Part shown: positions 18,040 through 39,662 of the stretch, in pieces | Position numbering within the stretch: position 1 is the first letter of the stretch | Layout: the number at the start of each line of letters is the position of its first letter | Origin: Patescibacteria group bacterium | GTDB taxonomy: Bacteria > Patescibacteriota > Patescibacteriia > Magasanikbacterales > GWA2-37-8 | Direction of reading: 5' to 3' | DNA: 64,000 nucleotides | NCBI GenBank assembly: GCA_041649475.1 | Contig: JBAZNA010000001.1 | Coordinates: 392,612-456,611 of the forward strand | Position numbers and translations under genes: made by a program | Notes under the pieces: generated by a model | What the model saw: the letters and a program-made list of their open reading frames with translations, nothing else | The model's database searches: none | What the model was told of the DNA's origin: nothing

Positions 18040-18045
18040 TATCGT

Positions 18046-18452: not shown

Positions 18453-18461
18453 TGGTATAAT
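18453..18461 (+). promoter_or_regulatory. Extended -10 promoter-like motif TGGTATAAT upstream of the giant ORF
   Basis: TATGGTATAATAAT lies 14 nt before the 18475 ATG, with a -35-like TTAGCG 16 nt upstream. Confidence 0.35.
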
Positions 18462-18474
18462 AATCAAAGAGAGA

Positions 18475-21400
18475 ATGCTTGTCACTATGGACAACGGAGA
18501 GAGGTATAAAAAATTCTCCAAAATATTAACTGGTGCTTCTTTAATAGTGGGCATATTTATGGCCCTCTATTATTTTGTTTATCCAGTTTTAGCCAATCCG
18601 CCGGGCAGTCCGTACGCGCCGGGCGCAACGCTTGATCCGGGTTGTTCTCCCGGAGATCCGAATTGCACGGTTTATCCACCGCTTACCACCACCCTTACCA
18701 CCTCCACCGCCATAACAATGGGCACGAGCACCTTGAATTTTGGCACCAGCACACTGTTTATAGACGCATACAACACCAGAGTCGGCATTGGCACTGCAAA
18801 CCCGACCTATACCTTGCATGTGGTGGGAAATACAAATTTGGGGGGAGATGTCACCACTACTGGCAATTTATATATTGCCGGAGTTACGAATTTTGGACAG
18901 ACCGTCATTACCAATCTTAATGTCACTTCTGTCACTTCCACCAATCTGTACATTTCAGGCCTGGCTAGTTTTAACACTATTGCCTCGGGCACCTGGGCCG
19001 GCAGTATTATTGCCAATACCCATGGCGGCACCGGACAAAATAGTTCGGGCTGGACAGGGTTTGCCTATGTAAACAATGGCACGTGGACAACTTCTACGAT
19101 AACAACCGGCACCGTTTCCGGTTTGCCTACTTTCAATGCCGGTACTGCAGGATGGATTCCGTATTATGCCGGTGCGACTTCAACACTGACTCCGACCTCG
19201 GCGATTTTTATCGCGGCAGATGGAAAAGTGGGGATAAATTCCACCAGTCCTATAGCGCAGTTCGCCATTAATCAGATGGCAGGCTCTGCCACTGACGCCG
19301 CTTTATTTGATGTTTCTTCTTCTACCGGGGGTAGTATGCTTCATGTTTCGGCGAATGGAAATGTTGGGGTTGGAACGGTGAGTCCGGCGGCAAATTTGTC
19401 AGTTATTTCAAATTTACGTATTTTCCGTCCTGGTTATGAAACAACAGCTTACGCGGAGTTTATAAGAAATCCTACCGGAGGTTTCATTTATTCAAGTAAT
19501 GCTTTATATGTCGGCGGGACAAATACTAAAACTTCGCTTGGCGGTGGTTCAATCGGAGGAATTGTCCAGGGTATATTTAATTCCGCGTCCAACCAGACAG
19601 CGGTGGATATACCAATCACGTTTTCTCCCGGAAGCGGCACGCCTACAGACATCGCTTTAAATATTAATCCGATTATCAATTGGGGTGGAACTCCGGGCGC
19701 GGGTTCGTATGAGGCGCTAAAGATAGCCGTTACAGAAACTTCGCTTCCCACCGGAAATAATTATTTGATAAGAGCTAGCGCGGGTGCGGCCGGAACAACG
19801 GATAGATTTGTAGTGACAAATAATGGTTATGTGGGGATTGGGACATCTTCTCCTGTTGGAGCATTATCTCTCGCCTCTGGTCAGGTGTTTGTTCCGGATG
19901 GAGCGGCAGCTACTCCATCATATTCTTTTGTTGGTGAACAAAATACTGGTTTTTATCGCCCCACGTCCGGATTATTAACGGTAGCTGTAAGGAATGCCCA
20001 GATAGCTGCCTTTAATGGTCAGGCGGGGACGAATTATGGTTTAGTGCTTGGAGGGACAAAATCTCTACAATGGAATGTTGATGATAATCCTGCAACTGGT
20101 TATAATGTTGACACGGCTTTGGCAAGAAGCGCGGTTGGAATGCTTGAAATAAATAATAGTAATTCAGGACAGTATAGAGATTTAATCCTAAGAAATTTGT
20201 TTGCTACAAGTAGTGTTGGCATCAACAGTTCATCTCCTATCGCCAAATTAGGAGTACAAGGTTCTGTAACCAATGGTAGTTTGCCCCTTTTAGACATCGC
20301 CTCTTCCACCGGGACCAGCTTGCTTCGTGTAACATCGGGCGGGAATGTGGGGGTTGGAACGGCGAGTCCTGGGTATAAAATGGATGTTAATTTGGGTTTG
20401 TTTGCCAGTAATGATACGTTTGGATATAACATTTATGGAAATGCAGGAAATGCTGTCGGTTATGCGGGTTATAACTTGCAATTAGATAATACAACAGGAA
20501 ATACTTCCGGTTATGTGAGATTAGCAAGAACACCTAGTACCGCTTACCTAGGGCTGGAAATCGGTTCACAATCACGTGATGGTATAAGGTTTTTAACAAA
20601 TACAATTACACCTGTTGAGGTAATGCGTATAACAAGTGCTGGCAACGTCGGTATCAACACCACCTCTCCCGCTTGGAAATTATCAGTAGCCGGTGATATC
20701 AACACCACCGGCACTTACAGGATAAATGACACACAAATTGCTTTAACTAACTTGGGTGACACTTCGCTTCCTGCACCCGTTGCCAATGACTGTCTAACTT
20801 ATAACGGTTCTTTCTGGGTGGCTGGCGCGTGCACTTCGCTTTCTGCCGGGCAGAGCGTGGACTATTATATTAATGATCAACTGTCGGCTGTTTCCACAAC
20901 TCTTCATTTATTAGAAAGAGCACCAATCACAGCAACCGAAGTGAGTGATGTTGTCAGTGTTCCGGCTGGAACTACGACTACGATTGATGCCTATATTTCG
21001 TCTTCTACGATAGGCGCGACGCAGGTGGATGCCGGAGCTTGGACATTTTCCGTCTTTGCGTCGTCAACCGGAGGAGCGGGACAGCAGACCATTGTGATAG
21101 AGGTCTATACTATTTCTGTTACAGGCACTACTCAATTGTTGTTTAGTGTCAGGACCGCGGATATTACCCAGACCACCCCCACCTTGATTGATGTTGAAAC
21201 AGTCCAGCCGGCTTTTCAGCTTGCTTCTTCAACCGACAGATTGTATGTGATTTTTAAAGGTTCTAACACTGGGGGGACAGCCCGAAATATTGGTTATACC
21301 GAAAATGGCACATCCAGATATACTCATTTTCATACGCCATTATTAACCAGACATAATAATTTAGCAGGAATTCAGGGCGGTTCCACAGCTGATCAGTATT

Positions 21401-24400
21401 ATCATCTCACCGCTGCCGAATACGCGGGCACTGGTTCGGGTATTTTTGTAAAACAAACTTCTCCGACTTTTTTGACTAATATTTCAATTGGCGGTGGCAC
21501 CGCTACCACAACTATCTATGGCAGCGCAACTTCTACCTTTCCGTATGGCGCGACGTTTGCGACTACAGGAGGAAGTGTGGGGATTGGAACATCAACCCCA
21601 ACTATGCCTCTGCATGTTTATTCTTCTACGGCAGGAGTTTGGGGAAACCCCACTAATTTAGCAATTTTGGAGCAAGCTAGTGCTGATGCCAACCCTTTCC
21701 TCGTCTTAAGAAGAACCAACACTGCTTATAATGACAGTGCGGGCGGCGGAATAACCGTACAAGAAGGAAGACCTGATGGCAGTACACTTGCAACTTTGGG
21801 TCAATTAAGGTTTGCTCAAGACGACAACTTTGCCGCAACTCCAAAGACCTCATTTATTTTGAATCTGAACAATGGTAGCGCTTTAACTGAAGTTTTGAGA
21901 GTTAAAGGAAATGGAAGTATTGGGATAAATTCTACTTCTCCTATCGCCAAATTAGGAATACAAGGTTCTGTGACTAACGGCAGTTTGCCGCTTCTAGACA
22001 TCGCCTCTTCCACTGGTTCTAGTTTGCTTCGGGTTTTGGCGAATGGGAATGTAGCTTTGTCTTTGGGGTCATACCTTTGTTTTGATGGAAGCGGCTGTTC
22101 GGCGGGCATAAATTATACCGGAGGAGGAGCTATGCAGTTTAATGGCTCTAACATGATATTCTATAGTAGTAATATTGATGTTCAGGGTAATGCAATTTAT
22201 AACAGTGGTTCTGGAAACGGCGGAGGCATTTATATAAACGATAATGTCGGTATCGGCACCTCCACTCCCGACGCTCGCCTCACGGTTTTGTCCGCCACCA
22301 TCGCTACCTCCTCTAACGCCCTCACAGTTTACAACGCCAGTTCAACAAAACTTTTTAAAATCGCGGACAGTGGAGATGTTTCTTTTGCCAACGACGGCCT
22401 GTATTATGAGGCGTCAAGTTCGGTTTTATACGCAAACAGCATTGAAACCGGCGCGATGAATTTTGATGAAGATGCCGGACAAGTGACATGGGTGAATCTT
22501 CCAATCACCACCACCACAGCCGGGTTGGTTGAAAGTTATAGCGCGCAGGTGGGTGATAATAATATATTAACAGTATACGGTGTAACAGATGGCGCCGGTG
22601 GAGTTTCACAATTACGCGTTGGCATAAATACCAGCACTCCATTATCTGATTTGGATGTATTTGGCAGTATGGTTTTATCCGGCTCAAACAGATATCTAAA
22701 CTTCGGCAATACCACCGGCACCACCGGTTATGGTATTTATGATAATGGGGGAGTCATGCAATTTAAAAATTCAAGTGGCGCGTGGACAAATATTTCCACT
22801 TCAACTGTTGCCTATGGCACAGCCGGGTATATTCCATATTATGCGACAACCGGTAATGCACTTACCGCCACTTCGGCTGTGTTTATCAAAACAGATGGAA
22901 AAGTGGGGATTGGGACGACTTCTCCCAGTGCGAAGTTACAGATTACTCCAAATGCTAATACTACCGTTGGATTGATTGTGCAGGGAGACAATAATCAAAC
23001 TGCAGATATTCAGCAATGGCAAACCAGTACTGGTACACTCCTGGCGTCAATCATAGGTTCCGGATCTTATCAGGGCGGCTGGCTTTTTTATGGGCTAAAT
23101 AATTATATAGATGCTTCTAATTACTCTAGGTTAAGGATATCACCTAATGGTAATGAATACCGTTTAATTACTGAATCTGCGGGGAGTGGTACCGCGAGAG
23201 ATTTAAGTTTGGTAGCAGACACAGGAAGGGCTCTATACTTTGGTGCTAATGGGACAGCTTATCAAGCATACCTAAACGCTCTTGGTAATTTTATTGTTAA
23301 TGGCGGAAAACTCGGTGTTAGTACCAGTACCCCAATCGCAAAATTAGGAGTGCAAGGTCTAGCCACTGAAGGCAGCTTGCCATTGTTAGACATCGCCTCT
23401 TCCACTGGCTCCAGTTTACTGCGAGTAACATCAGGAGGAAATGTGGGGATTGGGACGGCGAGTCCGGATACGACATTACACGTAAATGGAAATATAACAT
23501 TAGGAACAGGATCAAGTTCAAACGATCATCTTATATTTAACTACATTTCAGGGTTGGGAGAAGATTACGCAAGAATTAGGTTGGGAGCTAGTGGATACGA
23601 GCGTGTGAAATTAAGTCTTGGCATTGATCCTTTGGCTACCGGGCGTGGTCTTTTCAAAATAAGTACGGGTGATGGGGGGTCAGCTCCCACTGAAAGATTT
23701 AGAATAACCCCGAGTGGCTATATTGGTATAAATAGTTCTACACCAATGGCTCAGCTCGCCGTTCAGGGGTATGCTACTTCCACTCCTCTTTTAGACATCG
23801 CCTCTTCCACTGGCTCCAGTTTACTGCGAGTAACATCAGGAGGAAATGTGGGGATTGGAACGGAGAGTCCTTATGCACCCCTTCAAGTGGGAGCAGGCAT
23901 ACCATTGTATTCCACCGGACAACTTGATGTGTGGCAAGCAAGTAAGCCGGTCACTAGTATTGGTAATGTGAATATTTATTCAAATGATTCTGCGACAATA
24001 AACACTGGTGGGAGTATTGGTTTTGGTGGAGCCAATGGGAGTAACACGTATGTCTTTGGAAAAGTAGCCGGGCGTTTAGAAAATGCATCAGGTTATGCTG
24101 GCTATCTTCAATTTTCAACAACTCTTGCTAGTTCTGAAATTTCGGAAAAAATGAGGATAACAAGTGCTGGTAACGTCGGCATCGGCACCACCAGCCCTTA
24201 CGCCCGACTAAGCATAACGAGCGCCGGTATAACCAGTTCCACCCTCGCTTTTGCAGTTGACAATGCCAGTTCCACTCAACTGATGAGGATAGATGACGCC
24301 GGCAACATTTCTATGGGCGGGGATGGTTTTTATTACGACGCTTCAACCACTGTTTCGCATCTAAACGCCGAGTTTGGCAGTATGAGTTTTGACGAGGATG

Positions 24401-27033
24401 CGGGCATTGTCTCGTGGATAAATTTGCCGTTCGTTTCCACCACCATACCGCAAGGCACAATAATGTCTTATTCAGCGCAAATTAACAATACAGATATTTT
24501 AACAATTTATGGCGAGACCAACGGCTCGGGCGGTTTGCAGAATCCGCGGGTGGGTGTTGGCACCACCACGCCAAATGCAAAGCTTACTATTTATAGTGAT
24601 ACTATAGCCACTTCCTCTAATGCTCTCACCGTTTATAACACTTCCTCCACGCGGTTGTTAAAAGTTGCCGACAGTGGAGATATTAGTTTTGGAAATGCCG
24701 ATGGTTTGTATTATGAGGCCTCAAGTTCGGTTACATATGTAAACAGTTTGCAAACCGGCCCGCAGAGTTTTGACGAGGACGCGGGCATAGTTTCATGGAT
24801 CAATTTACCGATTACCACTACCACGGCCGGAATAGTGAACAGCTACAGCGCTCAAATTGCCAGTAATGATATTTTGACAATTTACGGTGAGACCGATGGA
24901 AGCGGAGGTATATTAAATACAAAAGTCGGTATCAACAGCAACACTCCGATGGCAACTTTGGCAGTGCAGGGTTACGCCAGCAGTTTGCCAATTTTTGACG
25001 TGGCTTCTTCAAGCGGTGCCAGCTTCTTGAGGGTCCTAGCGAATGGAAAAGTGGGGATTGGGACAACGACACCGAGGAATCCATTGGATGTGCGTGCAGT
25101 CGGGGGAACTGAAGAAGTTTTGAGAATTGGTGGTGGAAGTACGAACGATACTTATGGTTTCGGCGTGGGAGGTGGGTCACACGCGGCTGGAGGATATTTT
25201 GGCTTGTGGCATTTTAGCGCTACTACCAATGATTGGGATACAAACGTATTTTTAGTAACTCCAACAGGTGATTTTTATCCACAGCACAATATACAAATTG
25301 CTCCTCCCAGTGGATATACAAATGGAAACAATTTGGGATTATTTCCACAAACAGACGCCACACTAGAAAATGCCGTCTTGAAGTTATACGGTGCAAATGC
25401 ATTGCAGTTTGATGTGCGACCGTACACAGGTACTTGGGGAACGCAAGTTACTGCTATGTATATAAATGGTGTTGGCAACGTTGGCATCGCTACCACCACA
25501 CCTTTAGCTAGACTTACTATTGCCGGCGCTACCATCGCCACTTCCTCCAATGCTCTCACTGTCTATAACGCTTCAACCACCCGTTTATTTAAAGTTGCCG
25601 ATTCCGGTGACATCTCCATGGGTTCTGCGGACGGCTTCTACTATGAGGCATCCACCAGTATTTCATATGTCAATTCTCTACAAACCGGTGGCTTAAATTT
25701 TGATGATAATGCCGGTCTGGTAAGCTGGGTGGATATGACCATTGATAACAATGCTACCACTGGCACACCGGAAGGATACACTGCCTCGCTCAACGGCAAT
25801 CCGATGATACTTGTCTATGGCGACAGCGTCGGTGACGGCACAGTCACCAATATGACTGTCTCCATTGGCACCAGCACCACCAGCACTTACAAGCTATATA
25901 TAGACGCGGGTGGAAGCGCCAATGCTGGTTTAGGTGTCAACGGTTATATCAAATCATCCGGGTTTATCGCCGGCACCACCACTTTGGACTTGGCCGAAAC
26001 CTACCCGCTTGATCCGAATTGTTCGGCTCTTGGAAATTGTCCGGCAGTGGGCGATGTGGTTTGCGCGAACGAGAAAAATGTTAATATACAAATTCCGGAT
26101 CCGTCCAACCCATCTTCAACCATTGATACCGTAAACACTTTGTTTGTCATAGAAAAATGTTCAGCCACTTCAACCGACAACGCGATTGGTGTGGTTTCCG
26201 CCAATCCGGGCTTTGTCCTCGGTGGCTATGACTTGAACGATACTTTGAAATCCAAAAATCCGGGTTTGTATCCGTCAACTTATCAGCCGGTGGCCTTGTC
26301 CGGACGCGTGCCGGTTAATGTTTCACTGGAAAACGGTCCGATTAAAGCAGGGGACTTGCTTACTTCATCTGTCCAGCCGGGCGTGGCTGTGAAAGCGGTT
26401 GAACCGGGTCGTGTGATCGGTGTGGCTTTGGAATCTGCCAGCGCCACCAGCTCTGTGCCGACAATAAAAATGTTTGTCAACCCGCATTGGTCAGTTGGAT
26501 CGCTCACCGAAGAACAGATCAGTAACGAATTGCCTGACTTCAGTGTACAAGGAATATTAGACAGCTTCACTGTGGCTGTGGAAAATAGTTTACGGAAATT
26601 GGGAATGCTGTTAAAGAATGGCGTAGCCACAGTCAAACAATTATTTGCCGATAAAGTGCAGACCAATCAACTGTGCGTTGGCGCTACTTGCGTAAACGAA
26701 CAGCAATTGCAGGATTTATTAAACAAAACAAATACCCAGCCGGCCGCACCCGTGATTGAGACCCCGACAACAACTGAACCACCAGCTAGTACAACAACCC
26801 CTGTCGTTGAGACCCCGACAACAACCCCGCCAGTCACCGAACCTGTCGCGCCGGTCGTTGAGACCCCTCCGACTACAGAACCGGCTCCGCCAACAGAAGT
26901 AACTCCGCCACCGACCGAAGTAACTCCGCCACCAGCGGAACCAGCTCCAGTTGTGGTTGAACCCGCTCCAGCACCAGAACCTGCTCCTACTCCAGCCCCG
27001 GCCCCAGCTGATACCGGAACAGTAACTCCATAG
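18475..27033 (+). CDS. Giant (2852 aa) repetitive Thr/Gly/Ser-rich surface protein with N-terminal TM anchor and Pro/Thr/Glu-rich C-terminal tail
   Basis: A single uninterrupted ORF. N-terminal TM helix (ILTGASLIVGIFMALYYFVY). Dozens of GNVG[IV]GT.SP-type motifs. About five copies of a ...SSSPIAKLGVQGSVTNGSLPLLDIASSTGSSLLRVTSGGNVGIGT... module and about four copies of an ~100-aa ATIATSSNALTVYNASST...FDEDAGIVSWINLPITTTTAG... module. C-terminal Cys-containing domain, then a PTTTEPP.../APAPEPAPTPAP low-complexity tail. Confidence 0.7.
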   Translation: MLVTMDNGERYKKFSKILTGASLIVGIFMALYYFVYPVLANPPGSPYAPGATLDPGCSPGDPNCTVYPPLTTTLTTSTAITMGTSTLNFGTSTLFIDAYNTRVGIGTANPTYTLHVVGNTNLGGDVTTTGNLYIAGVTNFGQTVITNLNVTSVTSTNLYISGLASFNTIASGTWAGSIIANTHGGTGQNSSGWTGFAYVNNGTWTTSTITTGTVSGLPTFNAGTAGWIPYYAGATSTLTPTSAIFIAADGKVGINSTSPIAQFAINQMAGSATDAALFDVSSSTGGSMLHVSANGNVGVGTVSPAANLSVISNLRIFRPGYETTAYAEFIRNPTGGFIYSSNALYVGGTNTKTSLGGGSIGGIVQGIFNSASNQTAVDIPITFSPGSGTPTDIALNINPIINWGGTPGAGSYEALKIAVTETSLPTGNNYLIRASAGAAGTTDRFVVTNNGYVGIGTSSPVGALSLASGQVFVPDGAAATPSYSFVGEQNTGFYRPTSGLLTVAVRNAQIAAFNGQAGTNYGLVLGGTKSLQWNVDDNPATGYNVDTALARSAVGMLEINNSNSGQYRDLILRNLFATSSVGINSSSPIAKLGVQGSVTNGSLPLLDIASSTGTSLLRVTSGGNVGVGTASPGYKMDVNLGLFASNDTFGYNIYGNAGNAVGYAGYNLQLDNTTGNTSGYVRLARTPSTAYLGLEIGSQSRDGIRFLTNTITPVEVMRITSAGNVGINTTSPAWKLSVAGDINTTGTYRINDTQIALTNLGDTSLPAPVANDCLTYNGSFWVAGACTSLSAGQSVDYYINDQLSAVSTTLHLLERAPITATEVSDVVSVPAGTTTTIDAYISSSTIGATQVDAGAWTFSVFASSTGGAGQQTIVIEVYTISVTGTTQLLFSVRTADITQTTPTLIDVETVQPAFQLASSTDRLYVIFKGSNTGGTARNIGYTENGTSRYTHFHTPLLTRHNNLAGIQGGSTADQYYHLTAAEYAGTGSGIFVKQTSPTFLTNISIGGGTATTTIYGSATSTFPYGATFATTGGSVGIGTSTPTMPLHVYSSTAGVWGNPTNLAILEQASADANPFLVLRRTNTAYNDSAGGGITVQEGRPDGSTLATLGQLRFAQDDNFAATPKTSFILNLNNGSALTEVLRVKGNGSIGINSTSPIAKLGIQGSVTNGSLPLLDIASSTGSSLLRVLANGNVALSLGSYLCFDGSGCSAGINYTGGGAMQFNGSNMIFYSSNIDVQGNAIYNSGSGNGGGIYINDNVGIGTSTPDARLTVLSATIATSSNALTVYNASSTKLFKIADSGDVSFANDGLYYEASSSVLYANSIETGAMNFDEDAGQVTWVNLPITTTTAGLVESYSAQVGDNNILTVYGVTDGAGGVSQLRVGINTSTPLSDLDVFGSMVLSGSNRYLNFGNTTGTTGYGIYDNGGVMQFKNSSGAWTNISTSTVAYGTAGYIPYYATTGNALTATSAVFIKTDGKVGIGTTSPSAKLQITPNANTTVGLIVQGDNNQTADIQQWQTSTGTLLASIIGSGSYQGGWLFYGLNNYIDASNYSRLRISPNGNEYRLITESAGSGTARDLSLVADTGRALYFGANGTAYQAYLNALGNFIVNGGKLGVSTSTPIAKLGVQGLATEGSLPLLDIASSTGSSLLRVTSGGNVGIGTASPDTTLHVNGNITLGTGSSSNDHLIFNYISGLGEDYARIRLGASGYERVKLSLGIDPLATGRGLFKISTGDGGSAPTERFRITPSGYIGINSSTPMAQLAVQGYATSTPLLDIASSTGSSLLRVTSGGNVGIGTESPYAPLQVGAGIPLYSTGQLDVWQASKPVTSIGNVNIYSNDSATINTGGSIGFGGANGSNTYVFGKVAGRLENASGYAGYLQFSTTLASSEISEKMRITSAGNVGIGTTSPYARLSITSAGITSSTLAFAVDNASSTQLMRIDDAGNISMGGDGFYYDASTTVSHLNAEFGSMSFDEDAGIVSWINLPFVSTTIPQGTIMSYSAQINNTDILTIYGETNGSGGLQNPRVGVGTTTPNAKLTIYSDTIATSSNALTVYNTSSTRLLKVADSGDISFGNADGLYYEASSSVTYVNSLQTGPQSFDEDAGIVSWINLPITTTTAGIVNSYSAQIASNDILTIYGETDGSGGILNTKVGINSNTPMATLAVQGYASSLPIFDVASSSGASFLRVLANGKVGIGTTTPRNPLDVRAVGGTEEVLRIGGGSTNDTYGFGVGGGSHAAGGYFGLWHFSATTNDWDTNVFLVTPTGDFYPQHNIQIAPPSGYTNGNNLGLFPQTDATLENAVLKLYGANALQFDVRPYTGTWGTQVTAMYINGVGNVGIATTTPLARLTIAGATIATSSNALTVYNASTTRLFKVADSGDISMGSADGFYYEASTSISYVNSLQTGGLNFDDNAGLVSWVDMTIDNNATTGTPEGYTASLNGNPMILVYGDSVGDGTVTNMTVSIGTSTTSTYKLYIDAGGSANAGLGVNGYIKSSGFIAGTTTLDLAETYPLDPNCSALGNCPAVGDVVCANEKNVNIQIPDPSNPSSTIDTVNTLFVIEKCSATSTDNAIGVVSANPGFVLGGYDLNDTLKSKNPGLYPSTYQPVALSGRVPVNVSLENGPIKAGDLLTSSVQPGVAVKAVEPGRVIGVALESASATSSVPTIKMFVNPHWSVGSLTEEQISNELPDFSVQGILDSFTVAVENSLRKLGMLLKNGVATVKQLFADKVQTNQLCVGATCVNEQQLQDLLNKTNTQPAAPVIETPTTTEPPASTTTPVVETPTTTPPVTEPVAPVVETPPTTEPAPPTEVTPPPTEVTPPPAEPAPVVVEPAPAPEPAPTPAPAPADTGTVTP

Positions 27034-27034
27034 C

Positions 27035-29065: not shown

Positions 29066-29078
29066 TTAGCCGAACAGC

Positions 29079-31088: not shown

Positions 31089-31089
31089 T

Positions 31090-33201
31090 ATGAAACGCGT
31101 TTTGTTCACAGTTCCTTTCTTACTGATAATACTCGCCGCGGGCTTGTTTTTGCGTTCCCGTTTTGCAAATGCCATGGTTGTCAATCAAAGCGTTAACAAT
31201 AGCAACTTAACTTTTGGTTTGGTGGGCTGGTGGACAATGGATGGAGCGGATACCAATGCCACACAGGCCTTGGATAAAAGCGGAAATGGAAATACCGGCG
31301 CTAGAAATGGCGGGACTAAACTTGTTTCGGGCAAAATTGGGCAGGCGATGAAGTTTGATGGGAGTAGCGGGAATATTGCTACAACTCCAGGTGTTACTGC
31401 CTTGACTTCTACATCTACTTTTACAATGTCGGTTTGGGTTTATTGGAATGATACCACCGCAAACGCACCCGCGACGGAATGTCCTTTTTATAATGGAGGC
31501 AGTTATGGTTTTTGTATAAATACTGGAGGTAATAAAATGGGTATTTATTATAATAATATTAACGCGACTGTTATAGTCGCGAGTGTATTACCAAAAAAAA
31601 CCTGGAGACATTATGTGATGACAAGGGCTAATGGGGTAAGTTCTTTGTATGAAAATGGAGTATTTAAGGACTCTCAAAATACCGATGTCCCCCAAGATGT
31701 GAATACGTTTTATGCCACGCATGTTGGAGAATTGTGGGCTGGTCCTACCTTTCCTTTTAACGGTTCAGTTGACGATGCCCGCATTTACTCCCGCGCCCTG
31801 TCCGCCACAGAGGTCCAGCAATTATACAAACTCGGCGGCGGAAAGATAAATCAAACTCCGACAATAAATTTAAGCAACGGCCTGGTGGGCTGGTGGACAA
31901 TGGATGGAGCGGATACAAACGCCACACAGGCGTTGGACAAATCAGGGTATAATAACACGGGGACAAGAACGACAGTTACACCAGTGGTAGGGGAAATAGG
32001 TCAGGCAATGAGTTTTAATGGGACGAGCGGATATGTTAATGTTCCAGTAAGTCAAGGATCTGTTTTGGATATAGCCACTAGTACATATTCGGTTTGGATT
32101 TATCCAACTGTGAGTGGTGTTGGAGCACAAAGTGGGCTTAGAGGTATAATCACTCGTGATTCTGGGAGTATGCCAATGGCGTGGAGATATGCCAATGATA
32201 ATATCATATTTAGCTTTAACGATACGATTATTATTACGGTCGCAGGTCCGGCTTTGAATAAATGGACCCTGGCTACTGTAACATACGATGGTACGAACGT
32301 GAGAATGTATTATAACGGCGTTCTTGTTGCTGGCCCCACCGCTTCTTCGCCGCCGGCTGTTTCAAGCGATCCTTTAAAAATTGGATTGGACTACACTGGT
32401 CAGTATAGTAGATATTTTAGTGGGAAAATGGATGACGTTCGCATCTACAGCCGCGCCCTGTCTGTCGCCGAAGTAAAAGCCCTGTATCAAATGTCACTTC
32501 CCGCAAAATCCAATTCCTCCAATGCGGGCAAAGGCGGATCTTTAACGGATTCCAGTTTGGTGGGCTGGTGGACTTTTGATGGCGCCTATACAAATACCAC
32601 ACAGGCCCTGGACAAAAGTAGAAATAGTAATACCGGTACCAGAACTGGTGGAACAAAACTTGTTTCAGGCAAACTCGGTCAGGCGATGAAGTTTGATGGG
32701 AGCAGTGCATACGTTGGAATGGCGGCTTCTGCGGGAAATAATTCAAGTGCCATAGGTCATACGTATGCCGTCTGGGTTTACAGAACAAAAGATTATAGCA
32801 GCGGACTCGGATGGGTTATAGAGAATGGCGGGACATGGGGGGAAGCGGGTGGCTCTAATTTGACGATCAGCGGAAACAGAATTTGTTATTATTATAACAA
32901 TGCTAATGTTTCGGTTTTAAGCAATAGTACCGTTTCAGCCAATGCCTGGCACCATATCGTGGTTTCGTATAATGCAAATACCAATAAAGCTACGTTTTAT
33001 TTGGATGGAAGAGCAGATGGAACCAGTGCAGCCCTGGGAAGCTGGGATGCTTCAACAAATTTAGTTAGAATCGGAAATTGGATTTCAGGAGGGGGTGGGC
33101 ATAATGAATACTATTTTGAAGGTTCCATTGACGACGCCCGCATCTATTCCCGCGCCCTCTCGGCCGCCGAAGTAATGCAGTTATATAAAATGGGAAAGTA
33201 A
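31090..33201 (+). CDS. Secreted triple LamG/ConA-like domain protein, paralog 3 of 6
   Basis: Signal peptide; three LamG-like units; start codon 2 nt after the previous stop. Confidence 0.75.
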   Translation: MKRVLFTVPFLLIILAAGLFLRSRFANAMVVNQSVNNSNLTFGLVGWWTMDGADTNATQALDKSGNGNTGARNGGTKLVSGKIGQAMKFDGSSGNIATTPGVTALTSTSTFTMSVWVYWNDTTANAPATECPFYNGGSYGFCINTGGNKMGIYYNNINATVIVASVLPKKTWRHYVMTRANGVSSLYENGVFKDSQNTDVPQDVNTFYATHVGELWAGPTFPFNGSVDDARIYSRALSATEVQQLYKLGGGKINQTPTINLSNGLVGWWTMDGADTNATQALDKSGYNNTGTRTTVTPVVGEIGQAMSFNGTSGYVNVPVSQGSVLDIATSTYSVWIYPTVSGVGAQSGLRGIITRDSGSMPMAWRYANDNIIFSFNDTIIITVAGPALNKWTLATVTYDGTNVRMYYNGVLVAGPTASSPPAVSSDPLKIGLDYTGQYSRYFSGKMDDVRIYSRALSVAEVKALYQMSLPAKSNSSNAGKGGSLTDSSLVGWWTFDGAYTNTTQALDKSRNSNTGTRTGGTKLVSGKLGQAMKFDGSSAYVGMAASAGNNSSAIGHTYAVWVYRTKDYSSGLGWVIENGGTWGEAGGSNLTISGNRICYYYNNANVSVLSNSTVSANAWHHIVVSYNANTNKATFYLDGRADGTSAALGSWDASTNLVRIGNWISGGGGHNEYYFEGSIDDARIYSRALSAAEVMQLYKMGK

Positions 33202-33204
33202 AAT

Positions 33205-35304
33205 ATGAAACGATTTTTATTCACAATTTCCATAATAATATTCCTATGGCTGGTAGCGCCGGCAAGCGCCGCCACTATCTCCACATCTAACACCAGCGCC
33301 CCGAATTTAAAAACAGGTCTCGTTGGCTGGTGGACGTTTGATGGGGTATCAGTCACCAGCACCGGCGTTCTTGATAAAAGCGGACAAAATAATAATGGCG
33401 GTAGAATGGGTGGGACTTCCGTGGCTACCGGAAAGGTTGGACAGGGAATTAAACTAAATGGAACTACCGGCTACATTTCGGGCGCCAATTCAACAGATAT
33501 CGCGTCTACACCGGTGACTGTTTCTGTGTGGGTAAAATTTTTAACCATTGCTCCTGGTAATAATTATCCAAGAATAATTGATGTGCAGGATAGTAATTAT
33601 TCAGTCCAAATAGTTTGGGACTATGGAACGGGTGGCAGTGGTCAATTTGTAACCAAGCATAGTGAGTGGCAAGCCGCAGGTGACGGTACACAGTGGGGTG
33701 TAACACCGGTTCTAAATAAATGGTATCATCTTGTGGCAGTTTGGGATGCGTCTGCAAACTCAACCAAATTTTATGTTAATGGTATTGAACAGTCAGGTTC
33801 GGCAAATAGTAATATTGGTGAGGGAGCATCAAGAAACAAATATTTTTTTGGAGTCAGAGGCGACCTTTTAGCAAGTCCAAATACTTTTGGTAACGAGGTG
33901 CTTGACGACGTTCGTATTTACAGTCGTACTCTGTCCGCTACCGAAGTTCAGGCATTATATAAACAAGGCGGAGGAGTGATAAGCAAAACCGATTTAATCA
34001 CGGCACAACTGCGAAACGGATTGGGAGGTTTGTGGACTTTTGACGGAAAAGATACAACCTCGGTAACGACCACCGATAAAAGCGGAAATGGGAATGACGG
34101 AACAAGAAGTGGTTTAACAAAAGTGATAATCGGCAAAATTGGACAGGGGATGAATTTTGATGCGGTTCATGGAAGCGGTCAGATAACCATAACATCGTCT
34201 CCGTCTGTCCATCCAACAGGGAGCTTTACCCTATCAGCTTGGGTTAATCGTGCCAATGCACAAAATGCGGAAATTATTCAAAAAGGTACTGGGGCTTTTA
34301 GCGGAGCAGCGGCGGGTACCGACTTTGAATTCGGTTTTGTTTCTCTTTTATATTTTCAATTTCACGGCAGTGACGGTTCAGCCAACAGTTTGGCTGTTTC
34401 TGCGCCAATATTGAATCAATGGCAGTTACTTACAGCGGTTTTTGATTCAGGAAGAACAATGAAAATTTATATCAATGGAGTAGAAAAAGCCACCAAAGAT
34501 GTCACGGTCACGAGCACTGAAGATTCCACCGGTAATTTACATATTGGCGGGTTTGTTTATTTTTTTCATGGTTCTATAGACGACGCCCGCATCTACAACC
34601 GCGCTCTTTCGGCCACGGAAATTCAACAATTATATACACAAGGTGGAGGTAAAATCAGCAAGACCGATTTAATCACAGCGCAACTGCGAAACGGATTGGT
34701 TGGCCATTGGACTTTTGATGGAACGTCAGTCACCACCACGGGCGTTATTGATAAGAGCGGACAAAATAACAACGGGGTCAGGGTGGGCGGGACAAAAGTG
34801 GCAACCGGTAAAATCGGGCAGGCGATGAAGTTTGATGGGGCGGACGGAAGAATATATTCTTCCTGCACCGGTTTTTCTAATACAGCGATCAGTATTGCTT
34901 TTTGGGCCAAACAATTGGCCGCGCCTTCTAATTATTCTCTGGTGGTTGGTGACCAAGGCGGCCTGGGCGCTGTTTTTGTCTTTCCATCCGATGGTAGGTT
35001 TTTCGGTCAGCTTTCCTTGACTTCTGCCGGAAACGTTTATTCAGGGTATGTTGCCCCAGGAACAGGTTGGAATCACTGGGTGTTTACTTGGAAAAGTGGC
35101 GATAAATTAAAACTTTATAAAAACGGTGTTTTAGCCAGCCAGAGCGGAGACGCATATACTGATACGATTCAAAATTTTATAGGAATTTATATTGGTTATT
35201 ACAGTGGTGTAAATTATTTTAACGGTTATATAGACGACGCCCGTGTCTACTCCCGCGCCCTGTCCGCGGCCGAAATCCAGCAGTTATATAGGATGGGGAA
35301 ATAA
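33205..35304 (+). CDS. Secreted triple LamG/ConA-like domain protein, paralog 4 of 6
   Basis: Signal peptide ending APASA/AT; three LamG-like units. Confidence 0.75.
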   Translation: MKRFLFTISIIIFLWLVAPASAATISTSNTSAPNLKTGLVGWWTFDGVSVTSTGVLDKSGQNNNGGRMGGTSVATGKVGQGIKLNGTTGYISGANSTDIASTPVTVSVWVKFLTIAPGNNYPRIIDVQDSNYSVQIVWDYGTGGSGQFVTKHSEWQAAGDGTQWGVTPVLNKWYHLVAVWDASANSTKFYVNGIEQSGSANSNIGEGASRNKYFFGVRGDLLASPNTFGNEVLDDVRIYSRTLSATEVQALYKQGGGVISKTDLITAQLRNGLGGLWTFDGKDTTSVTTTDKSGNGNDGTRSGLTKVIIGKIGQGMNFDAVHGSGQITITSSPSVHPTGSFTLSAWVNRANAQNAEIIQKGTGAFSGAAAGTDFEFGFVSLLYFQFHGSDGSANSLAVSAPILNQWQLLTAVFDSGRTMKIYINGVEKATKDVTVTSTEDSTGNLHIGGFVYFFHGSIDDARIYNRALSATEIQQLYTQGGGKISKTDLITAQLRNGLVGHWTFDGTSVTTTGVIDKSGQNNNGVRVGGTKVATGKIGQAMKFDGADGRIYSSCTGFSNTAISIAFWAKQLAAPSNYSLVVGDQGGLGAVFVFPSDGRFFGQLSLTSAGNVYSGYVAPGTGWNHWVFTWKSGDKLKLYKNGVLASQSGDAYTDTIQNFIGIYIGYYSGVNYFNGYIDDARVYSRALSAAEIQQLYRMGK

Positions 35305-35319
35305 ATCCATATAGATTTT

Positions 35320-37362
35320 ATGAAGCGCATTTCGTTCGCAATTGCCGCAATAATATTCCTATGGCTGATGGCACCAGCAAACGCTATTGTTGTCAATTCT
35401 TCTCCGGCCAAAAGTTTGACAAATGGTTTGGTGGGCTGGTGGACGTTTGATGGGATGGATACGACGGCAAGCACTGCTAATGCTAAAAATGGGTTAGGAA
35501 ATAACGGAACAAGGATGGGAACGACGTCGCTAGTGAGGGGCAAGATTGGCCAGGCAATAAAACTTGATGGGTTAAGCGGACAAATAAACGCCGGTTCGGC
35601 TAGCGGTTTTGGAAGTACAGAAAGTCATACTTTTTCTGCTTGGATAAATGCCAAAGCTCTTGGTGCTGATGCTGATTGGCCGTGTATCATTAGCAGAGAC
35701 AACACTGGTGTAGGTACAGACCTGCTTATTTACAATCAGAAAATCTCTTTTTTATATAACGGAGGAGCGGCGGCAGTTTTTGGCAATTCACCTCTTTCTT
35801 TAAATAAATGGTATTTTATTTCTGTAGTTTATGATGCCTCCACCAATAAAGCTACTTTTTATGTAAATGGTTTACTAGATGTAACTTCAAATGCTCTTGG
35901 TTCATGGAATTCCGGTTCGGCCCCATTATATATTGGTTCATATCAGGGAAGTACTCATTTTTTTAATGGTTCTATTGATGATGCGCGCATCTATAGCCGA
36001 GCCCTGTCCGCTACCGAAATTCAGCAACTATACAAACAAGGCGGGGGAGTGATAAACAAAACTGATTTAATTAAAGCGCAACTGCGCACCGGACTCGTAG
36101 GCCAGTGGACCTTTGACGGATTGTCAGTCACCAGTACCGGCGTTCTTGATCAAAGCGGACTAGGAAATAACGGTGGCAGGCAAGGCGGAACTTCTCTGGT
36201 GAGAGGCAAAATCGGCCAGGCGATGAAGTTTGATGGAACAAATGACTTTATTGACGTAGGGCATAGTAATACAAGTTTGGATTTAGAAGACAGATTAACT
36301 CTTTCTACATGGGTTAAGTTTAATGTTTTAACCGGAACTTTTGAAGAAATGATTGTTAAATCCGGGGGTTATTATTGGATAGGTATCACTCAAGATGGTG
36401 CAGACTACAAACCGTATTTCCTTATCTATAATGGTACTAATCGAACTGTCACAGGAGTGACTTCCATTAAGACAGGGGTCTGGTACCATATTGTTGGTAC
36501 TTGGGATAAAAATGAAGGAACCATGAGGTTATATCTCAATGGGATTTTTGAAAATTCATTACCTAATATCACCACTTCTATTTTTGCGCAGACAGCCAAT
36601 GTTTATTTGGGCGGAGATGTCACTGTAAGAATCAATGGACTTATTGACGACGCCCGTATCTACAACCGCGCCCTGTCCGCGACAGAAATCCAGGAACTTT
36701 ATAAAATGGGCGGGGGGGTGATAAACAAAACTGATTTGATTAAGGCACAGCTCCGCACCGGGCTCGTCGGCCAGTGGACCTTTGACGGATTATCAGTCAC
36801 CAGTACCGGCGTTCTTGATCAAAGCGGACAAAATAACAATGGTGGCAGGCAAGGTGGAACTTCTCTGATGAGAGGAAAAATCGGGCAGGCGATGAAGTTT
36901 GATGGCGTGGATGGCAAAGTTTCGGCGACAGGTTATGAGACCACGATATTTACAATCAGCGCGTGGGTAAAAACTAATGATGCTAGAGACGACAAACATT
37001 TTGTCGAGTTTACCGACAGTTCTGGCTACAGACACGGGATAGGACTGTACCCGGCAGGCAGACCGGTTATGACTTACGGCGTGGCAAAATGGAAAAACAG
37101 CACCGGTTCCTTAATAAACGATTCAAAATGGCATCATTTTGTCGGCACTTACGACGGAATTAGCGCAAAAATATATATTGATGGCATTTCCCAAGGCCTC
37201 TCTGGCGAAAATTCATGTGGCGCATCAGCAGCAAGTGTCCTAGTGATTGGAAGAGCCGTGGATAACGGTTCCCAAGTTAATTCTTTAATTGACGACGCTC
37301 GTGTCTACTCCCGCGCCCTGTCCGCGCAGGAGGTTTACCAATTGTATAAAATGGGAAAATAG
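35320..37362 (+). CDS. Secreted triple LamG/ConA-like domain protein, paralog 5 of 6
   Basis: Signal peptide ending APANA/IV; three LamG-like units. The starts of units 2 and 3 are near-identical at the nucleotide level (about 36046-36240 vs 36706-36900). Confidence 0.75.
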   Translation: MKRISFAIAAIIFLWLMAPANAIVVNSSPAKSLTNGLVGWWTFDGMDTTASTANAKNGLGNNGTRMGTTSLVRGKIGQAIKLDGLSGQINAGSASGFGSTESHTFSAWINAKALGADADWPCIISRDNTGVGTDLLIYNQKISFLYNGGAAAVFGNSPLSLNKWYFISVVYDASTNKATFYVNGLLDVTSNALGSWNSGSAPLYIGSYQGSTHFFNGSIDDARIYSRALSATEIQQLYKQGGGVINKTDLIKAQLRTGLVGQWTFDGLSVTSTGVLDQSGLGNNGGRQGGTSLVRGKIGQAMKFDGTNDFIDVGHSNTSLDLEDRLTLSTWVKFNVLTGTFEEMIVKSGGYYWIGITQDGADYKPYFLIYNGTNRTVTGVTSIKTGVWYHIVGTWDKNEGTMRLYLNGIFENSLPNITTSIFAQTANVYLGGDVTVRINGLIDDARIYNRALSATEIQELYKMGGGVINKTDLIKAQLRTGLVGQWTFDGLSVTSTGVLDQSGQNNNGGRQGGTSLMRGKIGQAMKFDGVDGKVSATGYETTIFTISAWVKTNDARDDKHFVEFTDSSGYRHGIGLYPAGRPVMTYGVAKWKNSTGSLINDSKWHHFVGTYDGISAKIYIDGISQGLSGENSCGASAASVLVIGRAVDNGSQVNSLIDDARVYSRALSAQEVYQLYKMGK

Positions 37363-37375
37363 GAGCTACGCCCAT

Positions 37376-39601
37376 ATGAAAATAGTTATGTATAAATTCC
37401 GTTTTACAATTTTGTCTGTATTGGTCGCTCTTGTCTGGGTATTTTTGCCGCTCAAAACTTCTGCCCTCGTTATTTCTAAAACTCCGGCCAACAGTTTGCA
37501 AACCGGCCTGGTGGGCTGGTGGACTTTTGATGGAAAGGATTGGGCGTCTTCCCTGATTACTAAGGATAAAAGTGTGTTTAATAATAACGGAACTTTGATC
37601 GGAGGAGTGGCAAAAGTGAATGGAAAAATCGGGCAGGCCATTAATTTTACAGGTACTGGCACAGATTACATGTCTTTAGGTGCAACCACACCATCATCAT
37701 TGCAAAATTTGCCATTAGGAGATTTTACTGCTTGTGCGTGGGTGTATCCCAAATCACAAGGAAAAAACAATCTGGGAACCATATTTGATAATTATATTAC
37801 TCCAAATGGCGGATGGGCTTTGTTGTTGGTTCCTAATTATGCTCTTCAACTATCAATTGATTATCAGGGTGGTACCGGAAATGTTTATGCCCATAGTTTG
37901 GATAATGCTATAACACCAAGGGTGTGGCAACATCTTTGTATGGTTTTTAATATAAGCACTAAACGTGGACGGTTATTTAAAAATGGCATACAACTATCAT
38001 TGAATGGTGACGTTGCCGGTGGAACCAGCTATGCGAACGACGCGACCCATGAGTTCCGCATCGGTAATCAATCAAATACAACAGACCGTACCTTTGACGG
38101 GAAAATGGATGATGTCCGCATCTACTCTCGCGCCCTGTCCACAACGGAAATCCAAGAACTATATAAACAAGGCGGGGGAGTGATAAACAAAACCGATTTG
38201 ATTAAAGCGCAACTTCGCACTGGGTTGGTTGGCCAATTGACTTTTGATGGTAAGGATTTTTCTGATGCAACTCATGCCATTGATAAGAGTGGAAGAGGCA
38301 ATACAGGCACGCTGAATGGCACTTTGAGGAAAGTTAATGGAAAAATTGGACAAGCGTTAAGTTTTCCCGGACTGGCCACGGCCAATATTACAATGGCCGA
38401 TTCTGCAATCCTTAATCCCGGAAGTGGTGATTACACTGTAAGTACGTGGTTTAAATATTACGGAATAGTTGATACTGCTCACCCTGCTTTTATTTATAAT
38501 GATTACGGTAGTAATACAAATAATTTAGTGAATTTGTCAATTGAGTATCCCAGTAATCAACTTAGAGCAACTTATAGAGACGGAAGCGGAAACGACATTC
38601 TTGTTCTCGGTGTTGGTCCAACAGTAAATGACAGCAAGTGGCATCATGTTGTCTGGACAAAAAATAACAAAACCGGTTATCTGTATCTTGATGGAGTGTT
38701 TATAACATCCGACACTGACAGTTTAGTTGGGACAATTACCACCAACGACGCCAACCCGCCGATGGTCGGTCGCTACTCGCAAGATGCTAATAATATAGGG
38801 ATGTTTTGGGGTTTGATGGATGACTTTCGCATCTACTCCCGTGCTCTGTCCGCCTCTGAAGTTCAAGAACTATACAAACAAGGCGGAGGAAAGATAAACA
38901 AAACCGACTTGGTTAAGGCGCAACTGCGCACTGGGTTGGTTGGCCACTGGACTTTTGATGGAAAAGATTGGGCTTCAAATATTTTAACTTTGGATAAAAG
39001 CGGGTCCAATAATAACGGCATTTTGAATGGGGGAGTTACAAAAGTTAATGGCAAAATCGGACAGGCGGTGAAGTTTGATGGGAGTACCGGATATATAAAT
39101 GGTGGTGCTACCGGAATAATTGCAAACAATAACTACACTTATGCGACCTGGGTTAAATTTAAAACTCTTCCGGCGGACGGTACTTACTATACGGTAATTG
39201 GCGTAACCGAAGGTGATCAAAATTTTTTAATGGCAAATAATTATAATGTCACCTGGCATTACACCGGATTTGGCTGTGGCAGTTACTACAACGCCAGCTT
39301 CGGCGACCAAGCCGGGTATAATGGAGTACTGCCGAGCATTAACAAATGGTATCATGTTGCGTGCGTTAGAAATACAGCCACCAATAAAATAAGTTTATAT
39401 ATCAATGGCGTGCTTTCTAGTTCTACTACTCTTTCCAGCCCAACCGCGTATTATGGCGCCACGCAAGCAGTTTATATTGGTCGCAGAATAGCCGGGCCGG
39501 GGTATGAGGGGTACTTTAATGGTTGGTTTGATGATGCCCGCATCTACAACCGCGCCCTGTCCGCTACCGAGGTTTATGAGTTATATAGGATGGGGAAATA
39601 A
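37376..39601 (+). CDS. Secreted triple LamG/ConA-like domain protein, paralog 6 of 6
   Basis: I chose the ATG at 37376 (MKIVMYKFRFTILSVLVALVW) over the listed 37289 start. An AGGAG sequence sits 10 nt upstream. Three LamG-like units. Confidence 0.7.
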   Translation: MKIVMYKFRFTILSVLVALVWVFLPLKTSALVISKTPANSLQTGLVGWWTFDGKDWASSLITKDKSVFNNNGTLIGGVAKVNGKIGQAINFTGTGTDYMSLGATTPSSLQNLPLGDFTACAWVYPKSQGKNNLGTIFDNYITPNGGWALLLVPNYALQLSIDYQGGTGNVYAHSLDNAITPRVWQHLCMVFNISTKRGRLFKNGIQLSLNGDVAGGTSYANDATHEFRIGNQSNTTDRTFDGKMDDVRIYSRALSTTEIQELYKQGGGVINKTDLIKAQLRTGLVGQLTFDGKDFSDATHAIDKSGRGNTGTLNGTLRKVNGKIGQALSFPGLATANITMADSAILNPGSGDYTVSTWFKYYGIVDTAHPAFIYNDYGSNTNNLVNLSIEYPSNQLRATYRDGSGNDILVLGVGPTVNDSKWHHVVWTKNNKTGYLYLDGVFITSDTDSLVGTITTNDANPPMVGRYSQDANNIGMFWGLMDDFRIYSRALSASEVQELYKQGGGKINKTDLVKAQLRTGLVGHWTFDGKDWASNILTLDKSGSNNNGILNGGVTKVNGKIGQAVKFDGSTGYINGGATGIIANNNYTYATWVKFKTLPADGTYYTVIGVTEGDQNFLMANNYNVTWHYTGFGCGSYYNASFGDQAGYNGVLPSINKWYHVACVRNTATNKISLYINGVLSSSTTLSSPTAYYGATQAVYIGRRIAGPGYEGYFNGWFDDARIYNRALSATEVYELYRMGK

Positions 39602-39623
39602 GTTGAATTAAATTATCTTGAAG

Positions 39624-39662
39624 TAGCCAAGTTACATCGCTTGGCTATTTTATTTTTCTTTT
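39624..39662 (+). terminator. Strong rho-independent terminator closing the giant-protein/LamG gene block
   Basis: TAGCCAAG-ttacatcg-CTTGGCTA hairpin followed by TTTATTTTTCTTTT. Confidence 0.65.

Follow-up and report, generated by a model that had tools for sequence, protein, structure and literature searches.

A giant fibre-like gene with a gp12-type intramolecular chaperone domain precedes six tandem triple-LamG genes in a Patescibacteria genome

We analysed a 64,000-nucleotide stretch from the genome of a very small, probably symbiotic Patescibacteria group bacterium (assembly GCA_041649475.1, contig JBAZNA010000001.1, positions 392,612 to 456,611; hereafter the window), in which a giant fibre-like gene is followed by six tandem genes for secreted proteins built of LamG domains. 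Judging from sequence comparisons, we put at roughly 55% the probability that this block is a chromosomal cell-surface recognition or adhesion locus of the Patescibacteria, or Candidate Phyla Radiation (CPR), in which the LamG genes have undergone a lineage-specific expansion. The C-terminus of the giant is related to the self-cleaving chaperone domain of gp12, the pre-neck appendage protein of phage phi29. The block is a locally expanded instance of a layout that is widespread in Patescibacteria and previously undescribed in detail, and not a categorically new system.

How the ultrasmall CPR bacteria find and attach to their hosts is largely obscure outside a few cultured Saccharibacteria, in which type IV pili have been implicated. 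LamG- and concanavalin-type proteins of CPR bacteria are presumed, in generic terms, to be attachment factors (PMC11310336), and so are their giant surface and membrane proteins (PMC8080830). A general attachment role of such proteins is already assumed; the gp12-type identity of the giant's C-terminus is new. The locus provides concrete candidates for host recognition, namely a fibre with a single predicted cleavage site (L2504/D2505) and 18 related lectin-like modules with variable cores, which can be screened as ligand-binding candidates. The contrast of one and six LamG copies between syntenic genomes offers a natural experiment on specificity. Together, the putative gp12-type maturation device and this copy-number contrast make CPR host recognition experimentally approachable.

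A compact block with one promoter-like site and one terminator

The open reading frame (ORF) map places seven co-directional genes on the + strand at 18475-39601, the giant first and then six LamG paralogs of 669-741 residues, with stop-to-next-start gaps of 1, 13, 1, 3, 15 and 13 nt. The original prediction, made from the letters of the window, had described seven co-directional genes spaced by 1-15 nt, and the ORF map reproduced their coordinates, direction and gaps. An extended -10 promoter-like element, TGGTATAAT (18453-18461, + strand), lies 13 nt before the ATG of the giant and is the likely start of the transcription unit. This 9-mer occurs four times on the + strand of the window (15717, 18453, 59512 and 61947), each time in an intergenic position shortly 5' of a gene, and the + strand of 18475-39662 contains no copy. 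For TGNTATAAT, 9 matches were observed against 3.0 expected.

At the other end, an intrinsic terminator occupies 39619-39662 (+ strand), with a 14-bp stem (39619-39652), a 6-nt loop and a U-rich tail reaching to about 39662. Its RNA fold has an energy of -17.9 kcal/mol (z = -7.1), and none of 200 shuffled sequences folded as well. A scan of the + strand within the block gave no comparable terminator, which bears out the earlier claim that a single strong terminator closes the block. Co-direction, minimal gaps, one promoter-like site and one terminator, the features by which an operon is recognised, were thus all found at the level of sequence, and the operon-like packing originally proposed holds to that extent. 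These features fit one transcription unit of about 21 kb, and most likely one transcript covers all seven genes, beginning at the TGGTATAAT site (18453) and ending at the terminator (39619-39662).

The giant carries a gp12-type intramolecular chaperone domain

The giant (18475-27033, + strand) encodes 2852 residues, which comprise a putative N-terminal signal-anchor, tail-fibre-like repeats, a C-terminal intramolecular chaperone (IMC) domain and a Pro/Thr tail. Profile comparison shows that it carries a domain homologous to the gp12-type IMC. The profile of its C-terminal region (alignment A1) matched phi29 gp12 with E-values of 1.1e-8 (6qz9), 6.8e-6 (3gqh) and 9.9e-6 (3suc). In the profile alignment, the gp12 motif TW-S691/D692-F-A-E-Y-F falls on TTT-L2504/D2505-L-A-E-T-Y-P of the giant, and the D, A, E and Y of this cleavage-site motif are invariant among nine relatives in a second alignment, A2. 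In the virion, residue 691 is the last one of mature gp12 (PMC6542822). The IMC core of the giant extends from D2505-L-A-E-T-Y-P to FVNPHW (25987-26490, + strand), with autocleavage predicted between L2504 and D2505. Some relatives of the domain reach PF11962 (Peptidase_G2 IMC) or PF13884 (Peptidase_S74). By analogy with gp12, we infer that the giant would be a trimeric fibre that matures by self-cleavage.

The C-terminal region of about 350 residues is kept in Patescibacteria giants that otherwise have different bodies. It is 56% identical to that of a 1639-residue giant at a locus labelled Candidatus Magasanikbacteria (L001, GCA_016182085.1) and 32% identical (E 2e-34) to that of a 4335-residue giant (L002), for which the lineage label Candidatus Paceibacterota was taken from its LamG protein, P0061. 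The conservation goes beyond the IMC core. A segment behind it (...ILDSFTVAVENSLRKLG...LCVGATCVNEQQLQDLL; 26491-26739, + strand), which would belong to the C-terminal fragment predicted to be released, is also conserved in the giant of L001 (56% identity over 477 residues), in the L002 giant and in the proteins P0121-P0128. AlphaFold2 predicted helices and short strands for this segment, with low to moderate predicted local distance difference test (pLDDT) values. The protein then ends in a low-complexity tail of about 97 residues rich in Pro, Thr, Glu and Val (26740-27030, + strand), as read from the translation.

At the opposite end lies the sole hydrophobic segment of the giant, ILTGASLIVGIFMALYYFVYPVL (residues ~17-39; 18523-18591, + strand), which the translation suggests to be a signal-anchor or a long signal peptide; this N-terminal region is conserved in the orthologues of L001 and of a further syntenic locus, L004. 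The protein is rich in Thr (12.5%), Gly (12.2%) and Ser (10.2%). The whole giant gave no match in Pfam or NCBIfam, and it matched PHROG tail-fibre families (phrog_9942, E 3.3e-34; phrog_18345, E 5e-31). Self-BLAST with 200-residue windows found a module of about 130-150 residues four times (residues 1245-1397, 1900-2040, 2013-2166 and 2336-2468), with 41-66% identity among copies. Composition, PHROG matches and repeats agree with the original prediction of a repetitive, fibre-like protein rich in Thr, Gly and Ser with a hydrophobic N-terminal segment. However, that description was incomplete, as it missed the C-terminal gp12-type IMC domain, which belongs to a very large family.

Six triple-LamG paralogs with conserved edges and variable cores

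The six genes behind the giant, all on the + strand, each encode a signal peptide followed by three LamG units: G1 (27035-29065; 676 residues; units at residues 44-245, 265-451 and 471-672), G2 (29079-31088; 669 residues), G3 (31090-33201; 703 residues), G4 (33205-35304; 699 residues), G5 (35320-37362; 680 residues) and G6 (37376-39601; 741 residues). Laminin_G_3 (PF13385) matched three stretches in each of the six, with E-values of 6.9e-64, 2.6e-56, 2.7e-65, 1.3e-66, 9.2e-77 and 2.3e-70 for G1 to G6, respectively, and whole-protein scores of 190-257 bits against a gathering cut-off of 27.6. The mechanical ORF of G6 opens at TTG 37289, and a start at ATG 37376 restores the signal peptide (MK, hydrophobic stretch, AxA) of G1-G5. 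Signal peptides with AxA-type sites were read from all six sequences, and the start and end boundary motifs of the units were located by pattern in 18 of 18 units. The LamG family has a conserved C-terminus, ...LYxMGK. G5, the paralog chosen for modelling, is 100% identical to the NCBI protein P0001, annotated as 'LamG domain-containing protein'.

The AlphaFold2 model of G5, computed from a 61-sequence alignment, reached a mean pLDDT of 86.4. It shows an N-terminal helix, corresponding to the signal peptide, and three all-beta domains (beta-sandwiches), each ending in a short helix. Its best Foldseek matches in the PDB were neurexin-1alpha LNS2-6 and laminin LG1-3 (E ~1e-15), followed by a trans-sialidase lectin domain and the HcN domain of the clostridial neurotoxins BoNT/TeNT, the whole range being 1e-15 to 1e-10. 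With the PF13385 scores and these fold matches, the LamG/ConA-like assignment is solid. The original prediction of a signal peptide plus three LamG units per paralog is thereby upheld by Pfam, by the boundary motifs that it quoted and by the LG/LNS fold of the G5 model; Pfam and structure searches gave no sign of another fold.

The paralogs are 33-41% identical to each other when compared together with their relatives and 35-44% identical when aligned alone. The 18 units share 28-49% identity; their tree is star-like, without orthology by position, and does not allow the duplications to be put in order. Variation is concentrated within the units: the edges (first 50 and last 35 residues) have a mean majority frequency of about 0.6, and the central ~120 residues one of 0.30. 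Given these conserved edges and a hypervariable core of ~120 residues in each unit, the six genes taken together encode 18 distinct modules with a putative role in ligand binding. In the DNA, the unit edges alone are recognisable as repeats, and boundary repeats of 150-270 nt with 84-86% identity occur within and between G5 and G6. These repeats could support recombination.

One or six LamG copies at a syntenic locus

The closest syntenic relative that we found, L001, carries a Magasanikbacteria label; L004 is deposited under the generic label 'uncultured Gammaproteobacteria'. Both are metagenome-assembled genomes. The window, L001 and L004 have in common the gene order thymidine kinase (TK), a secreted or tail-anchored protein of 657-758 residues, a membrane protein of about 120 residues, the giant, LamG, SecA and SecDF. 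A single LamG gene is present at this locus in L001 and in L004, and six are present in the window. Copy number thus does vary between related genomes, a point that the original prediction had proposed to check by synteny. The only near relative recovered, L003, represents the genome of the window assembled a second time (100% identity over 21,968 nt) and, being identical to the window, gives no information on polymorphism.

The window was compared with L001 and L004 by amino-acid identity only, because both are too distant from it for meaningful synonymous divergence (dS). Between the window and L001, identity is 77% for SecA, 41% for the giant and at most 36% for LamG; between L001 and L004, the corresponding values are 92.5%, 82% and 74%. 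By this measure, the LamG genes diverge much faster than the neighbouring genes. In a neighbour-joining tree, which was built without support values, the paralogs cluster loosely by genome, and LamG identities are mostly 33-41% within and mostly 29-39% between genomes. This loose grouping by genome favours a lineage-specific LamG expansion followed by rapid divergence.

SecA (42905-45667 in the window) is the next conserved gene after the LamG gene or genes in the window, L001 and L004. It also lies directly 3' of an IMC giant in two further Patescibacteria loci, L013 (1-6153) and L072 (1-4005), where no LamG gene stands between the two. The giant-SecA neighbourhood therefore seems conserved.

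Distribution of IMC-capped fibres and LamG arrays

The IMC domain is widespread. Its profile matched 26,909 cluster representatives (50% identity) at E<=1e-3, 20,517 at E<=1e-10 and 4,326 at E<=1e-30, and among the 150 best matches, which reach 6,814 residues in length, a C-terminal position of the domain strongly predominates. Genomes were scanned with alignment A2, which is A1 trimmed to the IMC core; A1 had no conserved stretch. The scan found matches at no fewer than 387 loci in species-representative genomes, of which 80 (L004-L083) were retrieved; the counts of genes next to IMC giants in species-representative genomes refer to these 80. With few exceptions, their labels either name a Patescibacteria lineage or are generic or evidently assigned automatically. 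A predicted phage-type self-cleaving chaperone on tens of thousands of cellular giants, lying below the Pfam threshold, would provide an annotation handle for giant genes now called 'hypothetical'. The IMC-capped fibre family mostly escapes Pfam: two of three giant C-terminal domains scanned had no IMC-family match and the third was sub-threshold. Most relatives of the domain have no precomputed Pfam domain.

Multi-LamG proteins are also common. More than 1,400 homologues were found, in 3-unit (~700 residues) and 5-unit (~1,150 residues) forms. Of 80 metagenome loci, no fewer than 14 contain LamG genes in tandem, as do L084-L086. Such arrays follow an IMC giant in L084 (at least 3-4 LamG genes after a fragmented giant) and in L092 and L094 (two genes each). 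They occur with no giant in view in L085 (at least three genes), L086 (seven LamG-containing genes), L102 and L150 (three each) and L110 (3192-19586), where three tandem proteins of about 1,720 residues carry six LamG units each. L110 has the same total of 18 units as the window, packaged as 3 x 6 rather than 6 x 3. The six tandem copies of the window are the largest count of the 3-unit form encountered in this comparison. The original prediction knew of no named system that matches this architecture. We likewise found none, but with more than 1,400 homologues and at least 14 of 80 loci with arrays, the architecture is not unusual in the group.

In L084-L086, the LamG genes are interleaved with Bro-N, DUF559, Fic/RhuM, NYN, AAA_14/DUF4143, AbiEii/DUF6922 and Y1-transposase genes. 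These mobile, toxin-antitoxin and defence-type genes suggest that the arrays of L084-L086 lie in variable regions rich in mobile elements or defence genes. The giant and one LamG gene of L084 are split into fragments by frameshifts or assembly errors.

Linkage of giant and LamG genes, and competing readings

If the block is a recognition or adhesion locus, as we favour, its first gene would encode a fibre with its N-terminus anchored in the membrane and its phage-tail-fibre-like modules projecting from the cell. At about 2,450 residues per chain, such a fibre might, as a rough guess, measure a few hundred nm when fully extended. By analogy with gp12, the C-terminal domain would, once exported by Sec, start the assembly of a trimer and then be removed by its own cleavage between L2504 and D2505, which would expose the distal tip of the fibre. 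The following six genes would supply Sec-secreted triple-LamG proteins co-expressed with the giant, whose units may bind glycans or other surface molecules of a host or partner cell, each with its own specificity. These six genes would have arisen by lineage-specific expansion of the gene that is single in related genomes, with fast divergence thereafter. That the LamG proteins dock on the fibre, rather than act beside it, is plausible but less likely than not. A bolder version, which we regard as unlikely, makes the giant a membrane-anchored cellular counterpart of a phage receptor-binding fibre, the tip of which, after cleavage, docks one of six interchangeable triple-LamG adhesins. If this were true, the locus would serve the cell as a receptor-binding-protein cassette and determine the host cells open to attachment by the episymbiont, the one-to-six LamG expansion would widen host range, and the IMC-capped fibre family of more than 20,000 clusters would represent a major type of surface organelle as yet without a name, here mainly in Patescibacteria.

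Several observations weigh against a fibre-based adhesion locus. The window giant had no match to PF11962 even at E<=10, and the L001 orthologue (19.1 bits, E 9e-4) and the protein P0134 (24.5 bits) stayed under the cut-off of 25 bits; lying below this threshold, the giant is not filed as a PF11962 member by Pfam's own rule. The monomer AlphaFold2 model of the C-terminus was moderate (pLDDT 70), and its top Foldseek match, pre-mature gp12 (3suc), was weak (E 2e-3, TMq 0.32), with 3gqh at E 2e-2; phage decoration proteins scored similarly to these two against this moderate model. The six paralogs contain no further domain and no recognisable anchor, sorting signal or fibre-docking domain, and LamG folds occur in enzymes and non-adhesive proteins too. 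The pairing of giant and LamG is facultative: about 5 of 63-70 IMC giants in species-representative genomes adjoin a LamG gene, and most LamG loci have no IMC giant in view. By Pfam, the 63 downstream neighbours of IMC giants are heterogeneous (Beta-lactamase2 in 5; Laminin_G_3, DUF2341, TPR and fn3 in 4 each); DUF2341 is likewise a domain of the ConA-like clan.

Such figures would be expected if the LamG array were independent of the giant, both being surface-protein genes that sit in a variable, insertion-prone stretch between TK and SecA. On this view, the LamG proteins would have roles of their own; they might be lectins, either secreted or associated with the wall, or might bind nutrients or polymers. 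We consider this possible but doubtful. Apart from the facultative pairing, it is favoured by the L013 and L072 giants, which run straight into SecA, by L087, where a 5-LamG protein adjoins ParAB and not its nearby giant, by the mixing of LamG arrays elsewhere with Fic, DUF559, NYN, AAA_14/DUF4143, AbiEii and Y1 transposase genes, and by the low-GC stretch and ORF6N gene that trail the array in the window. However, in every case of co-occurrence the LamG gene follows the giant on the same strand, usually at a very short distance (1-16 nt in the window, L001, L002 and L004). A LamG gene lies directly 3' of the IMC giant on the same strand in L004, L005, L017, L022 and L040 (about 7% of the loci with room to see), and 19 of the 21 LamG ORFs found anywhere in the 80 IMC loci are directly downstream of the giant. 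Conversely, an IMC ORF lies directly 5' of LamG on the same strand in 6 of 80 metagenome LamG loci (L092, L094, L101, L111, L114 and L148) and nowhere else, which is far above chance adjacency, taking as the chance baseline our own estimate rather than a computed value. The same order is found in L001, L002 and L084, and the pairing recurs in different genomic contexts under several lineage labels (Magasanikbacteria, Paceibacterota, Levybacteria and Daviesbacteria). The pairing is thus directional and enriched, yet clearly facultative, being present in only about 7-13% of loci. The functional coupling of fibre and LamG proteins that had originally been hypothesised gains from the directional, enriched adjacency and loses from its restriction to about 7% of giants and 6 of 80 LamG loci.

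The phage-like features of the block raise the question of whether it is a prophage or tailocin-like remnant, with the giant as a true tail fibre and the LamG proteins as virion receptor-binding or decoration proteins. The PHROG tail-fibre matches of the giant, the match of G5 to a LamG-containing 'virion structural protein' family (phrog_8510, 1.5e-40), the phage-type nature of the IMC and an ORF6N/KilA-N-type gene at 40768-41196 are in its favour, and CPR phages with LamG or concanavalin-type proteins have been reported (PMC11310336). However, the flanks of the block are housekeeping genes (TK, an ABC transporter, SecA, SecDF, MreB, a DUF4012 protein, tRNA synthetases, clamp-loader subunits and PilM), and no capsid, portal, terminase, tail tube, baseplate or integrase gene was found among the window proteins scanned. 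The tail-fibre similarity comes without a phage setting of structural genes. The TK-SecA synteny of L001 and L004, the membrane segment of the giant and the Sec signal peptides of the LamG proteins, which virion proteins would not need, also speak against a remnant. Among 2.9 million viral contigs, the IMC pattern had no confirmed match and G5 two weak matches only. On genomic context and these viral-contig scans, we reject the prophage reading as highly improbable.

A variable surface coat for evading phages or host defence, by antigenic or receptor masking and possibly with alternate expression, would serve a purpose other than attachment. It would account for the extreme divergence of the unit cores, low at the edges, for boundary repeats that could allow recombination or unit shuffling, for 18 units without positional orthology and for related arrays among defence and toxin-antitoxin genes. 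Yet only one promoter-like site is present for all seven genes, and no invertible promoter, reverse transcriptase or other diversity-generating retroelement (DGR) component, or phase-variable simple repeat was noticed in the block, where no dedicated search was run; the window proteins scanned likewise included no reverse transcriptase, a dedicated DGR or phase-variation search again not having been run. We think a coat with evasion as its role quite improbable, although it is compatible with adhesion and does not exclude it.

Comparison with known systems

The closest known counterpart of the giant's C-terminus is phi29 gp12 (Peptidase_G2, PF11962; 3suc, 3gqh and 6qz9). The two have C-terminal domains of the same family (profile E 1e-8) and aligned cleavage motifs (S691/DFAEY and TTL/DLAETY), and in both the domain ends an elongated fibre or spike protein. 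In contrast to gp12, the giant is a cellular chromosomal gene product 3-4 times longer, with an N-terminal membrane segment in place of the virion-attachment domain and a body of tail-fibre-like modules instead of a pectate-lyase-like beta-helix. It also has an extra conserved segment and a Pro/Thr tail past the IMC, and it is sub-threshold in Pfam.

Phage tail fibres with an IMC are known (Peptidase_S74, endosialidase-type), as are pairs of a fibre gene and an adhesin or chaperone gene, such as T4 gp37/gp38. The block resembles the gp37/gp38-type pairs in that the gene of a trimeric fibre, as predicted for the giant, is followed by genes for small to medium putative receptor-binding proteins, and it resembles the Peptidase_S74-type fibres through PF13884 in some relatives of the giant's domain and through the PHROG tail-fibre matches. 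Unlike the T4 genes, it has no phage context, and the downstream genes encode putatively Sec-secreted triple-LamG proteins and not gp38-like adhesins or chaperones.

The six paralogs belong exactly to the class of CPR and DPANN 'LamG domain-containing proteins', from which the locus differs by its six tandem copies, the tight coupling to an IMC fibre gene and the one-to-six copy difference between syntenic genomes. With laminin alpha LG1-3 and neurexin LNS2-6, the best structural matches of the G5 model, they share serial LamG beta-sandwiches, for which a ligand-binding role is known from the eukaryotic proteins. However, with identity at 10-14% and global TM-scores of 0.17-0.26, the similarity is confined to the domain fold and does not extend to the arrangement; nor are the organisms or contexts related. 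TafC of the haloarchaeal Tat-fimbriae (NF052521; PMC11821415) likewise has a LamG-type domain (E 9e-37 over the domain), whereas the paralogs are bacterial, use Sec rather than Tat signals and have three units. Membership in the TafC family (NCBIfam NF052521) was considered and rejected, the score being 127 bits against a cut-off of 410, with only the LamG part of the model matched.

In the full-text literature, we found no description of IMC-capped cellular fibres in Patescibacteria, of a recurrent pairing of IMC fibres with multi-LamG proteins, or of a 1-to-6 expansion at a syntenic locus.

Neighbouring genes and additional observations

A conserved gene pair, p758 and p120 (15763-18408, + strand), lies upstream of the giant and has its own TGGTATAAT copy at 15717. 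p758 begins with a signal peptide and N-terminal GWINF repeats, contains a weak CarboxypepD_reg-like domain and ends in a transmembrane segment followed by a Lys-rich tail; p120 is small and has an N-terminal transmembrane segment. A pair of this type precedes the giant in L001 (2621-5012) and L004 (3424-5874). In L058 (13245-15771; labelled Paceibacterota), such a pair adjoins a different IMC protein, which would fit a place of the pair in the fibre system. An association with the giant is possible; membership in the fibre system is uncertain.

Two near-perfect sigma-70 consensus promoter-like sites lie on the - strand at 40440-40780, where a low-GC (38%) gap separates the array from the ORF6N gene. 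One, at 40479-40452, reads TTGACA-16-TATAAT (12/12), and the other, at 40774-40746, scores 11/12; no - strand ORF of at least 45 residues lies behind either site.

Farther upstream, Rfam matched a group I intron at 11350-11555 (RF00028; 55.1 bits, which exceeds the gathering score), some 60 nt 3' of tRNA-Thr(TGT) (11216-11288). It seems not to interrupt any annotated tRNA or rRNA, and it is followed by a 198-residue ORF (11691-12287) with weak transposase-HTH matches only and then by tRNA-Trp (12794-12865). Downstream of the block, a PpiC-type peptidyl-prolyl isomerase (Rotamase) domain is inserted into SecD, both in the window (46825-48567) and in L001 (16191-17948). An 839-residue protein resembling TrwB/TraG-type type IV secretion coupling proteins is encoded on the - strand at 56348-58867. 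At the window edge (61977-63128, + strand), a PilM gene is followed by a response-regulator gene, which fits the earlier remark that the organism is pilus-bearing.

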